From contig NC_000909.1 in NCBI RefSeq assembly GCF_000091665.1, positions 940,712-972,711 on the forward strand: a stretch of 32,000 nt of DNA, given 5' to 3'. The notes beneath the pieces were generated by a model that ran no database searches, was not told the DNA's origin, and worked only from the letters and a program-made list of their open reading frames with translations. Positions 1 to 5,214 of this stretch are shown here, piece after piece. The stretch's first letter is position 1; every line of letters starts with the position of its first letter. Source of the DNA: Methanocaldococcus jannaschii DSM 2661 (GTDB lineage Archaea; AGJL01; Methanococci; Methanococcales; Methanocaldococcaceae). Made by a program: the position numbers and the translations under genes.

Positions 1-367
1 ATGTATTTTTTGGTGTTGGAATACCACATAAAGAAGGAGCATCCTTTATCAAACTCCTTATAATTTCAATAGGCTTTTTATCATCCTCATACTCTTCAAA
101 CAAGACTTCTATAATTAGACGAAAACCGAAGGTTTTCGTTGCTCGAAGCTTCGCTTCGAACTCATCATACTTAGAGATAAAAATCTCTCTCAAATCGATA
201 TAAAACACAACATATTTGTTTTTATCCAGTCTATTGTTGATAATTTCATTAATTAGGGCTGTTTTTCCAGAGTTTATGGGGCCATAAATAAAATAAATTA
301 AATTTGGTTCTTCTTCTAAAATTGATAAAATTTCTTTTATTTCTTCCACCCTATTAAAGAATTTCAT
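1..367 (-). CDS. Archaeal ATPase (Arch_ATPase-like paralog family), N-terminal part; ORF runs off the left edge of the window
   Basis: My own minus-strand translation from ATG 367-365: MKFFNRVEEIKEILSILEEEPNLIYFIYGPINSGKTALINEIINNRLDKNKYVVFYIDLR... with Walker A GPINSGKT. GAGGAG SD (complement of 377-382) and a TATA-like AAATATATAG (complement of 390-399) lie upstream. Absent from the ORF track because it has no stop in the window. Confidence 0.75.
   Translation of the reverse strand, partial: MKFFNRVEEIKEILSILEEEPNLIYFIYGPINSGKTALINEIINNRLDKNKYVVFYIDLREIFISKYDEFEAKLRATKTFGFRLIIEVLFEEYEDDKKPIEIIRSLIKDAPSLCGIPTPKNT
119..159. repeat. Two adjacent perfect GC-rich hairpins inside the ATPase ORF
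   Basis: ACGAAAACC(119-127)-GAA-GGTTTTCGT(131-139), 9 bp stem. TCGAAGC(143-149)-TTC-GCTTCGA(153-159), 7 bp stem. Reading frame is maintained (encodes ...EFEAKLRATKTFGFRL...). Confidence 0.6.
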
Positions 368-398
368 ATTTATCAACTCCTCAAATTTACTATATATT

Positions 399-515
399 TC
401 ATATCATTTTTTTGCCAGTAATTAAAAAGTATATCTCTTTTCTAAAGTCATTTGCAGAATTTTCGCATCTTTCTAAATATTTTCCTATATTGGTTAGCTC
501 ATTCACAATAGCAAC
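399..515 (-). pseudogene. phoU: PhoU C-terminal remnant (third fragment of a broken phoU)
   Basis: Own translation: VAIVNELTNIGKYLERCENSANDFRKEIYFLITGKKMI*. This resembles the conserved PhoU C-terminal RyLERigDhatNia...y..tG block. Same reading phase as the 756..1148 ORF, different from 517..759. Confidence 0.5.
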
Positions 516-516
516 A

Positions 517-626
517 TTATAGTTTTTGCAAAACATTTTGAAATATATAGGATATATATGAACGCCCCCAAGTGGGGGCGTTCAAATTTTTATTTTTAAT
601 TTTAATAACTTTTGCAAAAACTATAA
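517..626. repeat. Palindromic element copy E1 (about 110 bp): 17-bp outer arms plus an 11-bp-stem central hairpin
   Basis: Arms TTATAGTTTTTGCAAAA 517-533 and TTTTGCAAAAACTATAA 610-626 are perfect reverse complements. Central TGAACGCCCCC(559-569)-AAGT-GGGGGCGTTCA(574-584). Arms and hairpin share the same symmetry centre (571.5). Confidence 0.8.
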
Positions 627-759
627 ACACATCTTCAAAAATCTTTCTTGCTAAGTATCTTTGAAACTCTTCATAAAATATCTTTTCAATTTCTCTGTGT
701 AGTTTATATATCTCATCAATTTTATTTATATCTTCATTTATGTAAGAAGAAATACTCAA
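517..759 (-). CDS. PhoU-family fragment (start of second PhoU repeat); its 3' third is read through a palindromic element
   Basis: ORF track 80 aa. EDINKIDEIYKLHREI resembles the D..iD helix of a PhoU repeat. The ATGA overlap with the upstream ORF (stop 758-756, ATG 759-757) indicates a frame break. The tail ...NLNAPTWGRSYISYIF... is encoded by the hairpin element. Confidence 0.45.
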   Translation of the reverse strand: MSISSYINEDINKIDEIYKLHREIEKIFYEEFQRYLARKIFEDVFIVFAKVIKIKNKNLNAPTWGRSYISYIFQNVLQKL

Positions 760-1148
760 TAAATTATCTCCTCAGTTAAAGAAGCCATTCTTTTTATGTA
801 TTTGTCATTTCTATCAAAATTAAATTTTGAATTTAGCAGAACAAAACTTATCTTTACGGCACATTCTTCAATTTTTTCCAACATTGAACACAATTTTATA
901 ATTGTTAGCAATTTTCTTAAATCTTTTGAGACGGGTCTATATAGGCATAGAGCTTTTACTGAATACATCTCCAATGACTCTAAATTTTTGATTATGTTAT
1001 TGTTTTTATAAATTACCAAATTACAGATGTCTTTTTTGTTTGTGCAGTATCCTTCAACACTAAGATTTAGATTTTTTATTATTTCTTCCCCTAATAGCTC
1101 TATTTTTCTATCCATCTCATTTACTATGTCATCAAATTTTTTTGGCAT
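756..1148 (-). CDS. phoU: PhoU-family protein, N-terminal repeat (130 aa fragment)
   Basis: ORF track. RPVSKDLRKLLTIIKLCSMLEKIEECAVKIS matches the PhoU motif P.a.DLR....ki..dlERigD.a.nia. It lies directly downstream of pstB in the same orientation. Confidence 0.7.
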   Translation of the reverse strand: MPKKFDDIVNEMDRKIELLGEEIIKNLNLSVEGYCTNKKDICNLVIYKNNNIIKNLESLEMYSVKALCLYRPVSKDLRKLLTIIKLCSMLEKIEECAVKISFVLLNSKFNFDRNDKYIKRMASLTEEIIY

Positions 1149-1214
1149 AAATATCCCTCAATAAGTATAAAAGTTCATATTTTGTGATTAATTAAAAAAT
1201 TTTGATGATGATAC

Positions 1215-1973
1215 TTAACCAAACCTACCACTAATGTAGTCATCTGTCTCCTTCTTCTGTGGATTTAGGAATATCTGCTCTGTCTCTCCAAACTCAATTA
1301 ATTTCCCCATTAAGAAAAAGGCAGTGTAATCAGAAACCCTACTTGCCTGCTGCATGTTGTGGGTAACAACAACAATCGTATAATCTTTAGCTAACTCAAC
1401 CATTAACTCCTCTATCTTTAATGTGGAGATAGGGTCTAAGGCAGATGTTGGTTCATCCATCAATAAAACCTCTGGCTTAACTGCTATCGCTCTCGCTATA
1501 CATAACCTCTGCTGTTGTCCTCCAGAGAGAGATAAAGCGTTTTTATGCAGTTCATCTTTAACCTCATCCCACAAAGCCGCTTTCTTTAAAGCCCACTCAA
1601 CAATCTTATCCAATTCTTTTTTATCCTTAATTCCATGAATTCTTGGGCCAAATGCAACATTATCATAGATGCTCATAGCAAAAGGATTTGGCTTTTGAAA
1701 TACCATTCCTACTCTCTTTCTCAACTCATAAACATCAACATCCTTATCATAGATATTTTTTCCATCCAATAAAACCTCTCCCTCTATTCTAACATTTGGA
1801 ATTAAATCATTTAGCCTATTTAAGCATCTTAAAAATGTTGATTTACCACATCCACTTGGCCCTATTAAGGCAGTTATTTTATTCTCATAGATTGGGAGAT
1901 TTATATCAAATAACGCCTGCTTTTCCCCATACCACAAATTTAGGTTTTTTGTTTCCATCTTCACCTTTGTCAT
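1215..1973 (-). CDS. pstB: Phosphate ABC transporter ATP-binding protein PstB
   Basis: Walker [10 protein letters not shown], signature LSGGQQQRL, Walker [12 protein letters not shown]. The typical PstB N-terminus and C-terminal YISGRFG are present. Confidence 0.95.
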
Positions 1974-2003
1974 TTCTATCCCTTTTTTATATTTTATAAA
2001 ATT

Positions 2004-2849
2004 TTATAATTTTATATCATCCTTTAAAGCATATCTTATCGGAACAAATATTGCTAAAAATATTATAAGCATTACTAAAGCCGCTCCCCATGCCATCTGG
2101 TGGTCTTCTATAGAAGGACTTTGAACTAATGTATAGATGAGGAGAGGAATTGCTCCAACTGGCTCTAATGGATTTGTTGGATAGACCTCATACAACCCTC
2201 CTGCAGTAAATAGTAGAGGAGCTGTTTCTCCAGCAACCTTTGCCATACCAATTAAAATTCCTGTTAAAATTCCTTTTTTAGCCATCTTCGTAATAACTTT
2301 GAATATTACTTGTGCCCTTGTGCATCCTAACGCATAACCTCCTTCTTTATAAATCTTTGGGACTTCTGCCATCGCTTCTTCTGTATAAACTGCAACATAA
2401 GGAGTTAATATTAAAGCTAAAGCCAAAGCCCCAGCTAATGCTGAAAAAGTTCCCATAGGAACAACTAACATACCCATGACAAATGTACCAACCAGTATAG
2501 TTGGGAATTCTAACATTATCTGCAGTAACATCTTTGTAGCTCTTCCAATAAAGCTGTTTGGGAATTCATAGGCATAAGCTCCAGCTAAGAAAGCTAAAGG
2601 TAAGCCAATTAAAGTCGCTAAGAATGTGAGCATTAAAGTCCCAACTATTGCCGGACCTATTCCTCCCTCACTCAACGTTCCAGTTATGAAAGTTAAGCCC
2701 CTTTCCATTATTATTGGTAGTCCTTTTTCAACAATTGAAATTATTATATGGAATAAAGGGAGTATTGCCAATAAAGTTAATGCCCCAACAATAAATAGAA
2801 ATATCTTATCTTTAATCATTCTAATGGTTTTATGTTTAATGGGAGACAT
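2004..2849 (-). CDS. pstA: Phosphate ABC transporter permease PstA
   Basis: Polytopic membrane protein, second permease of the pstSCAB order. It overlaps pstC by 14 nt. GGTGGAG SD lies before the ATG. Confidence 0.9.
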   Translation of the reverse strand: MSPIKHKTIRMIKDKIFLFIVGALTLLAILPLFHIIISIVEKGLPIIMERGLTFITGTLSEGGIGPAIVGTLMLTFLATLIGLPLAFLAGAYAYEFPNSFIGRATKMLLQIMLEFPTILVGTFVMGMLVVPMGTFSALAGALALALILTPYVAVYTEEAMAEVPKIYKEGGYALGCTRAQVIFKVITKMAKKGILTGILIGMAKVAGETAPLLFTAGGLYEVYPTNPLEPVGAIPLLIYTLVQSPSIEDHQMAWGAALVMLIIFLAIFVPIRYALKDDIKL

Positions 2850-3774
2850 GCTCTCTCCACCTCTTCAAATAATAAATTCCAATGATATTAACAACCAATC
2901 CTATAACAAACAGCACTAAACCAGCAGAGTAGAGGACAGAAGTCATATACTCATACAACACTGCATTTCCAAATTGATTTGCTATCAATGATGATATTGT
3001 ATATCCTGGAGCAAAGAGCTTGTAAGTTAGGTTGAAGGAGTTTCCAATAACCAGTGAAACAGCAACTGTTTCTCCTAAAGCCCTACCAAAAGCCAATATA
3101 AGCCCTGAAATTATGGCTGGTCTTATGTATTTTATTAAAACCTTTGTGGTTTCATATCTTGTTGCTCCTAAAGCAACTAAACCCTCTTTATAAACAGATG
3201 GAATCATTGCATAAGCCTCTCTAATAATAGCTGCTGCAAATGGAGTAACCATTATTCCCAACAAAATTCCTGCTGATAGATAGCAATAACCTGATAATGG
3301 AGGGTAATCAAAGAGTGGAATAAATGAAAAATGTTCATACAAAAATTTCATAATATGGTCTCTTAACAGAGGGACTAATATGAATGCTCCCCATATACCA
3401 TAAATTATTGTTGGAAGTCCTGCCATAATATCTGAAATTACAATTAAAGGATATTTCAGTCTTTTAGGAGCATAATCATTGACAAATATTGCATAGCATA
3501 TAGATAGAGGCAAAGCTATTAAAACAGCAATTGTTGCTGTATATATACTACCCCAAATTGGCGCTGCTAATCCATAAACTTCTTTTGCAGGTTCTTCAGC
3601 CGCTTTCCAAACATTTGTTATAAATAAATCAATACCATATCTCTCAATAGCTGGGAGTGCATTGAAGAAATAAAAGCCTAATATTAAAACAAATAATATA
3701 AACACAACAAATATTGCTGGTAATGTTATTATTTTGAATTCATCTATCTTTCTTAGGAGTTTTTTAATCTCCAT
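2836..3774 (-). CDS. pstC: Phosphate ABC transporter permease PstC
   Basis: Polytopic membrane protein immediately after pstS. The ORF track begins at TTG 3783. I prefer ATG 3774-3772 (MEIKKLLRK...), preceded by an AGGTTGA SD-like sequence. Confidence 0.9.
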   Translation of the reverse strand: MEIKKLLRKIDEFKIITLPAIFVVFILFVLILGFYFFNALPAIERYGIDLFITNVWKAAEEPAKEVYGLAAPIWGSIYTATIAVLIALPLSICYAIFVNDYAPKRLKYPLIVISDIMAGLPTIIYGIWGAFILVPLLRDHIMKFLYEHFSFIPLFDYPPLSGYCYLSAGILLGIMVTPFAAAIIREAYAMIPSVYKEGLVALGATRYETTKVLIKYIRPAIISGLILAFGRALGETVAVSLVIGNSFNLTYKLFAPGYTISSLIANQFGNAVLYEYMTSVLYSAGLVLFVIGLVVNIIGIYYLKRWREHVSH

Positions 3775-5102: not shown

Positions 5103-5214
5103 TGTGGTGTCATTCAAAACTTTTTTAATGATTTAAGGTATAGATGAACGCCTTCTAAAAGAAGGCGTTCAAAATTTTCATTAGTAGATTTTGTTATTTT
5201 TGAATGACACCATA
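5103..5214. repeat. Palindromic element copy E2 (108-112 bp) in the pstS upstream region
   Basis: Arms TGGTGTCATTCAAAA 5105-5119 and TTTTGAATGACACCA 5198-5212 are a perfect 15-bp inverted repeat (17 bp with one mismatch). Central TGAACGCCTTC(5145-5155)-TAAAA-GAAGGCGTTCA(5161-5171). Shared symmetry centre about 5158. Confidence 0.8.

Follow-up and report, generated by a model that had tools for sequence, protein, structure and literature searches.

We analyzed a 32,000-nucleotide stretch of the Methanocaldococcus jannaschii DSM 2661 genome (contig NC_000909.1, positions 940,712 to 972,711), referred to here as the window, in which a gene for a PhoU-like protein directly downstream of pstB is split over three open reading frames (ORFs). 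Our data indicate, with a probability that we would put at roughly three in four, that this gene, referred to here as phoU-1, is a pseudogene, inactivated recently, and derives from an accessory phoU paralogue that stands in tandem with an intact canonical phoU gene (phoU-2). Compared with intact orthologues, phoU-1 has lost one T from a run of four and carries a 104-bp palindromic element that resembles miniature inverted-repeat transposable elements (MITEs). The genome searched (G000) comprises 1,739,927 bp in three contigs of 1,664,970, 58,407 and 16,550 bp, and the window corresponds to G000:C1:940712-972711. Among the relatives compared, G004 and G007 are metagenome-assembled genomes (Methanococci JAADDS01 and JBDOKN01, respectively), while G003 and G008 are metagenome bins. 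L043-L046 are further alleles of the locus: L043 is grouped with G004 and L045 with G008, and L044 and L046 are metagenomic. The features of phoU-1 are as follows, in window coordinates.

756-1148, minus strand: piece 1 of phoU-1, the first PhoU repeat, a 130-amino-acid ORF (placed by its PF01895 match and by DNA alignment to G004)
761-763, minus strand: T run reading TTT, a 1-bp deletion (five of five relatives carry TTTT)
517-759, minus strand: piece 2, an open frame of 80 amino acids (from the ORF list)
626-759, minus strand: native part of piece 2, the start of the second PhoU repeat in a shifted frame (DNA alignment to relatives)
624-625, minus strand: left copy of the TA target-site duplication (alignment to relatives)
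520-623, minus strand: palindromic MITE-like element of 104 bp (alignment to relatives with an empty site)
518-519, minus strand: right copy of the TA target-site duplication, which with A517 makes the TAA stop of piece 2
399-518, minus strand: native part of piece 3, the last helix of the second PhoU repeat, with codons beginning at AAT 518-516

A first-pass annotation, made from the letters of the window, had described three PhoU-like open frames on the minus strand and had offered, as one of several readings, a pseudogene created by insertion of an element together with an indel. We found the three frames at 756-1148, 517-759 and 399-536, and they are colinear with single intact genes of G004 (228 amino acids) and G014 (224 amino acids) at 92-96% DNA identity, with piece 1 sharing 96% with the G004 orthologue. 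A colinear match of all three pieces to intact orthologues is far beyond chance. The PhoU-like character given to the pieces was borne out by Pfam search for piece 1, which matches PF01895 at 31.1 bits (cut-off, 23.5), but not for the others taken singly, since the match of piece 2 is weak (E = 0.067) and piece 3 alone has no match to Pfam PhoU. Two PhoU repeats in one polypeptide of approximately 210-240 amino acids are present in G004, G014, L044 and L046 and absent from the window, where each of the three frames is closed by a stop.

The first lesion is the loss of one T. Relatives read GAGATAATTTTATTGAG at this site, and the window is one T shorter (763-761). The loss falls after codon 129, and the resulting frame meets a TGA (758-756) after codon 130. 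A TTG at 759-757 overlaps this stop, so that the junction reads TTGA and not ATGA, as had first been described. The second lesion is an insertion, previously estimated at 108-110 bp, whose exact size by alignment to empty sites is 106 bp: the 104-bp element plus a duplicated TA. It separates the codons of ...FED(V/I)F from those of NVAIV..., at a TA inside codons 175-176, where the last helix begins. The native frame of piece 2 crosses the element for 35 codons and, as the first-pass annotation had it, ends at TAA 519-517; the duplicated TA, completed by the native A that follows it, makes up this stop. Because 106 is 35 x 3 + 1, the sequence 3' of the element is out of frame. The open frame of piece 3 (399-536, 45 amino acids) has its formal start, ATG 536-534, inside the element arm.

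We found the empty site, TTTAATG, in G004, G014, G008 and L043-L046, while G007 carries the same insertion. Intact one-frame orthologues of 214-228 amino acids are encoded in G004/L043, G014, L044, L046 and G009, and the G014 product counted from its second ATG is identical to the M. vulcanius M7 PhoU record P0005. Their empty site, and their TTTT where the window has TTT, support the proposed origin by element insertion plus indel. A split conserved among orthologues as independent genes, the pattern that the first-pass annotation had named as a refutation, is not what we found: the orthologues are either intact or broken differently, and nothing positive emerged in favor of three separately expressed peptides. 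In G008/L045 the paralogue has a 2-bp deletion, and the near-identical alleles L044 and L046 are intact. In the G003 orthologue (L013:1830-1960), one A run (A8) carries a +1 indel and another (A7), approximately 100 nucleotides away, a -1 indel, with some 30-odd codons shifted between them. The damage in G003 and G008 is either independent decay or homopolymer or assembly error of metagenome bins; if real, it would show that a dispensable gene has decayed more than once.

Pieces 1 and 3 are in one phase, as had been pointed out from the ORF list, because -1 bp and +106 bp sum to 105, or 35 codons. Two compensating frameshifts had also been suggested, and a full-length PhoU-1 might be imagined to arise from two such programmed shifts or from excision of the element as an archaeal bulge-helix-bulge intron. 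The shared phase is compatible with this idea, as is the very stable RNA hairpin predicted for the element, which has a predicted energy of -39.7 kcal/mol (z = -9.5) and pairs both of its ends in an unbroken terminal stem of 16 bp that includes the TA copies. We consider both routes very improbable. A shared phase arises by chance in one case of three, and it restores no product here, as every frame is still ended by a stop. Neither junction allows the tRNA to re-pair in the new frame: at the first, a -1 shift would be required on A-ATT-TAT-TGA, which lacks the X-XXY-YYZ pattern of a slippery site, and at the second a +1 shift on CTA-TAA, where re-pairing of the P-site tRNA is impossible. Removal of the 106 nucleotides would leave the -1 deletion out of frame, and the fold has neither the motif of a 3-nucleotide bulge, 4-bp helix and 3-nucleotide bulge nor any bulges at the stem ends. 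An Rfam scan of positions 300-1300 returned no family above threshold and only chance sub-threshold matches.

Homopolymer runs, in one of which the deletion sits, are a classical site of sequencing errors, and we asked whether the frameshift or the element could be an error of the 1996 reference assembly; G003, a metagenome bin, has two A-run indels that could be errors of that kind. Independent assemblies make this explanation scarcely credible for M. jannaschii. In the assembly collection, 34 indexed blocks contain the exact 130-amino-acid product, which ends at the stop made by the frameshift. Across the frameshift site the independent assemblies (Logan, JGI and ENA) agree at 100% with the window; ten of their contigs have 99.97-100% identity through it, and one of the contigs of the locus (L029) is 100% identical over 9-3648 with the element included. 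A sub-lineage marked by a synonymous single-nucleotide polymorphism at 1128 has the deletion too. Because these assemblies reproduce the lesions, a sequencing error at the split, which the first-pass annotation had wished to see excluded, is ruled against. All the matching assemblies probably stem from one strain, grown in culture or added to mock communities, and as such they confirm the strain sequence, not a natural frequency of the lesions. Many contigs stop inside the element, as expected of a repeat.

Some variants among these assemblies deserve mention. In the contig L028 an aminotransferase follows piece 2, and we rejected this arrangement as an assembly chimera formed through an identical repeat arm. 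A stretch of 31 bp at G000:C1:1339865-1339895, beside an otherwise diverged copy of the element family, matches the left arm of the phoU-1 element at every base, which is enough for assemblers using k = 31 to join both loci. Among proteins of Logan contigs (P0003, P0006 and P0007), some have A6 for the A7 run after the start codon, giving an N-terminus MRDIYAKKF... from an upstream TTG, and one of the Logan contigs of the locus has TGG where the TGA stop stands. The A6/A7 and TGG differences could reflect noise in sequencing or variation among cultures, or slippage during transcription in the event that the runs are RNA.

The presence of a fully intact pstSCAB block beside a broken phoU had been presented as a puzzle, and it dissolves once the neighboring gene is considered. 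A search of the genome for a second intact phoU, as had been proposed, found phoU-2 at C1:939902-939198, 1.2 kb past piece 3 and outside the window start. It is intact, has 235 residues as translated and scores 227.6 bits against TIGR02135 (cut-off, 130). The intact orthologue of phoU-1 aligns with positions 1-212 of the 212 of the same model and scores 75.3 bits against the cut-off of 130.25; it passes Pfam PhoU (53 bits) and aligns with solved PhoU structures (1XWM, residues 5-212). The second phoU and phoU-1 share approximately 28-34% identity. As judged by these comparisons, the broken gene is a divergent accessory tandem paralogue between pstB and the canonical phoU. Its intact orthologues share with the PhoU family (TIGR02135/PF01895; 1XWM, 1T72 and 2I0M) an end-to-end alignment, two repeats and the place after pstB. 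Unlike family members that TIGR02135 recognizes, phoU-1 is divergent (75 bits vs 130), occurs in some Methanocaldococcus genomes only and is not one polypeptide in the window.

The distribution of phoU-1 in the genus is patchy. Close copies occur in G004, G014, G007 and G008 and distant copies (39-51% identity) in G003 and G009, while the other genomes of the genus gave canonical-type matches alone (approximately 25-33% identity) and G005, which is 81% complete, gave no match. In G001 and G015 the gene order is pstB-phoU-ilvE, without a second phoU copy, which indicates that the paralogue is dispensable. The same genome search found a third PhoU-domain gene in M. jannaschii (287 amino acids; L003:1153-2016, near 1.62 Mb of C1), whose N-terminal extension resembles a DNA-binding (helix-turn-helix) domain; this gene is possibly a phosphate-responsive transcription regulator. 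In the literature we found nothing relevant on MJ1009, MJ1010 or MJ1011 or on phoU pseudogenes in M. jannaschii.

The order of the two lesions can be read from G007. Its element stands at the same site and is 93% identical to that of M. jannaschii, and it has kept TTTT, which leaves the G007 frame uninterrupted from the N-terminus as far as the TAA where the element ends. Since G007 shares the element without the deletion, the insertion would have come first and the deletion would be specific to the M. jannaschii line and, we infer, recent.

Selection on the coding sequence weighs against a simple loss of function. The pairwise ratio of non-synonymous to synonymous substitution rates (dN/dS) between M. 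jannaschii and G004 is 0.039, which is not above that of intact alleles (approximately 0.09-0.10) and gives no sign of relaxed selection. Polarized with outgroups, the changes on the M. jannaschii branch are six synonymous and zero non-synonymous; codon 174 was scored as non-synonymous by the script, but with the outgroup state taken for its first position the change reads GTA>GTG. Under neutrality over the whole branch, the probability of observing zero of six would be 1e-4 to 6e-4, given a neutral non-synonymous fraction of 0.71-0.81. We estimate that, if the pieces are now neutral, inactivation would cover at most about the last sixth (approximately 17%) of the branch. Instead of so recent a loss, the pieces may still be under constraint, or segments may have been brought in from intact alleles; such import is plausible because the pattern of similarity at the locus is mosaic, as described below. 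In addition, 7 of the 104 positions of the element are not the same in M. jannaschii and G007, a divergence suggesting that the insertion is not very young.

The synonymous-only changes of the branch are the one observation that sustains another explanation, in which residual function persists. On this explanation the 130-amino-acid product, which is a complete first PhoU repeat, and possibly the 80- and 45-amino-acid pieces through reinitiation at TTG 759 and ATG 536, would still be made and used, and a single-repeat PhoU could pair with itself or with the other pieces. Beyond the ratio of 0.039 and the absence of non-synonymous changes, a segment upstream of the shared element (segment B) has a dN/dS of approximately 0.14 between M. 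jannaschii and G007, which suggests that the truncated gene was constrained after the insertion, and piece 1 passes the Pfam cut-off by itself. These numbers are small, however, and recombination with lineages that carry intact alleles would mimic constraint. The signals for reinitiation are likewise two-sided. An AGGAG-like stretch stands 8 nucleotides before TTG 759, but it is merely the conserved T-E-E codons found in all orthologues; the element arm supplies an in-frame ATG 17 nucleotides before the upstream stop, but no Shine-Dalgarno-like sequence precedes ATG 536. Piece 2 would also contain 35 residues encoded by the element, the 7 base changes that separate this tail in M. jannaschii and G007 alter 4 residues, which looks neutral, and the gene is broken at other places in other lineages. 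Taken together, we regard residual function as unlikely.

A specific form of this idea is that the palindromic repeat turned one gene into a split gene, with fragments translated apart and reassembled into a six-helix bundle, or with the 130-amino-acid fragment acting alone. If true, the stop made by the TA and the arm ATG 17 nucleotides upstream of it would belong to a working arrangement, and the synonymous-only changes would be explained. We consider this split-gene arrangement decidedly improbable and retain the reading of phoU-1 as a recently inactivated pseudogene.

The element in phoU-1 has perfect 14-bp terminal inverted repeats (623-610 and 533-520) and a GC-rich 11-bp apical stem. 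An iterated nhmmer search, run to convergence, found approximately 48 chromosomal copies of 90-110 bp that are 71-82% identical to the phoU-1 copy, with the terminal arms kept across the family. Copies are typically flanked as TA|TAG...CTA|TA, and most have TA on both sides. The phoU-1 copy is the only clearly intragenic one, as no other lies inside an ORF of more than 90 codons, and the rest appear to be intergenic. The RNAalifold consensus of 37 copies recovered the apical hairpin alone and this is mostly invariant, a result that says little on whether the element acts as RNA or DNA. We found the family to be abundant only in G000, G015 and G001 and sparse in G007 and G008, and it was not found in G014, G009, G013, G003, G002 or G012.

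These properties fit the definition of MITEs as reviewed in PMC2229807. With MITEs such as Correia/NEMIS, RUP and the Sulfolobus MITEs, the family shares a length below 200 bp, AT-richness, inverted repeats, TA ends, target duplication, a lack of coding capacity and a mostly intergenic location, with the occasional copy inside a gene. Unlike them, it has no full-length partner element with the same ends in this genome: arm-like 16-mers (two or fewer mismatches) pair only at approximately 100 bp, and no pair lies 130-5000 bp apart. The phoU-1 insertion also differs from Rickettsia palindromic elements inside genes in that it is not in frame. Suyama, Lathe and Bork, writing in FEBS Lett in 2005, reportedly described 141 elements in three groups, of which three intragenic copies are said not to disrupt their genes. 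The phoU-1 copy does disrupt its gene, and the empty site and TA duplication revealed by comparison with relatives are direct evidence that it was inserted. MJRE1-3 are palindromic repetitive elements of M. jannaschii (PMID 16182294, as cited in PMC2229807), and what that review relays of them matches our family in organism, length (approximately 100 bp), palindromic structure, the presence of many diverged copies and an occasional location in coding regions. As far as we can tell from this description, the family fits the MJRE repeats and is very probably one of them.

A further feature distinguishes the 3' end of phoU-1 from that of its relatives, at the place where in relatives phoU-1 overlaps the start of the second phoU.

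1-401, minus strand: start of a cassette of approximately 1.2 kb with an archaeal ATPase gene (PF01637), delimited by divergence from relatives

The window departs from relatives after ...GGCAAAAAAATGATA, and the cassette runs past the window start to G000:C1:939930, with an ATPase open frame of 386 codons. It occupies the site where phoU-1 and phoU-2 formerly overlapped and stands in place of the final 10-14 codons of phoU-1, its first three bases (TGA, 401-399) being the stop of piece 3. On its other flank, immediately ahead of phoU-2, is a degenerate copy, of approximately 16 bp, of the phoU-1 end. The cassette is absent in G004, G014, G007 and G008 and present in L044 and L046 next to an intact phoU-1 of 214 amino acids. 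Since these intact alleles carry it too, the cassette does not inactivate phoU-1, and its presence varies independently of sequence lineage.

The similarity of phoU-1 to its relatives changes along the gene. M. jannaschii is 96% identical to G004 and 82% to G007 over the 5' 310 bp, 92.5% and 94%, respectively, over approximately 215 bp before the element, and 96% and 85% over the 118 bp after it; a chimeric metagenome assembly is possible for the short G007 contig. Over the wider locus, pstB-phoU-1-phoU-2 (window 402-2009 and C1:939228-939940) is 90-96% identical to G004 and G014, while pstS, pstC and pstA are 82-84% identical. As in G001 and G015, phoU-2 is followed by ilvE; G004 and G014 have another gene there. 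This mosaic similarity and the pattern of flanking genes argue that the locus exchanged DNA between lineages by recombination, and a recombination patch probably brought the tandem phoU pair into the M. jannaschii lineage.

These data show three changes in phoU-1. A non-autonomous palindromic element entered the TA in the gene, and the duplicated TA created the TAA stop with a +1 shift. Loss of a T from the TTTT after codon 129, which would have come later, closed the first frame at the TGA after 130 amino acids. The ATPase cassette at the phoU-1/phoU-2 overlap swapped the last codons without inactivation. No full-length PhoU-1 would be made. The canonical PhoU, whose gene lies 1.2 kb downstream, would do the regulatory work for Pst, and the loss of phoU-1 would on that account be tolerated.

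The other pst features of the window lie upstream of phoU-1, in a pstSCAB block at 5117-1215 on the minus strand that is separated from piece 1 by a spacer of 66 nucleotides.

5106-5212, minus strand: second copy of the element family, upstream of pstS (an insertion when compared with G004 and G014)
5117-3948, minus strand: pstS, open reading frame
3783-2836, minus strand: pstC, open reading frame
2849-2004, minus strand: pstA, open reading frame
1973-1215, minus strand: pstB, open reading frame

The second element copy sits between a divergent control region and pstS. G004 and G014 are empty there (6 bp vs approximately 122 bp), and this copy could alter the spacing of the pst promoter.

For annotation, our data imply that the 130- and 80-amino-acid ORFs are best annotated as parts of a single accessory phoU that has been disrupted. 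With an intact canonical gene beside it, M. jannaschii is not to be counted among organisms without PhoU control of Pst. The case is an ordinary one, in which a redundant paralogue is disrupted by a known kind of mobile repeat together with a homopolymer indel, and the split of phoU-1 raises no new question about phosphate regulation. What the locus offers is a clean comparison of a filled and an empty site for the palindromic repeats of Methanocaldococcus, with a unit of 104 bp and a duplication of TA. On this evidence from sequence comparison, the locus shows that the palindromic repeats move in the manner of MITEs and that recombination exchanges the pstB-phoU region between lineages.

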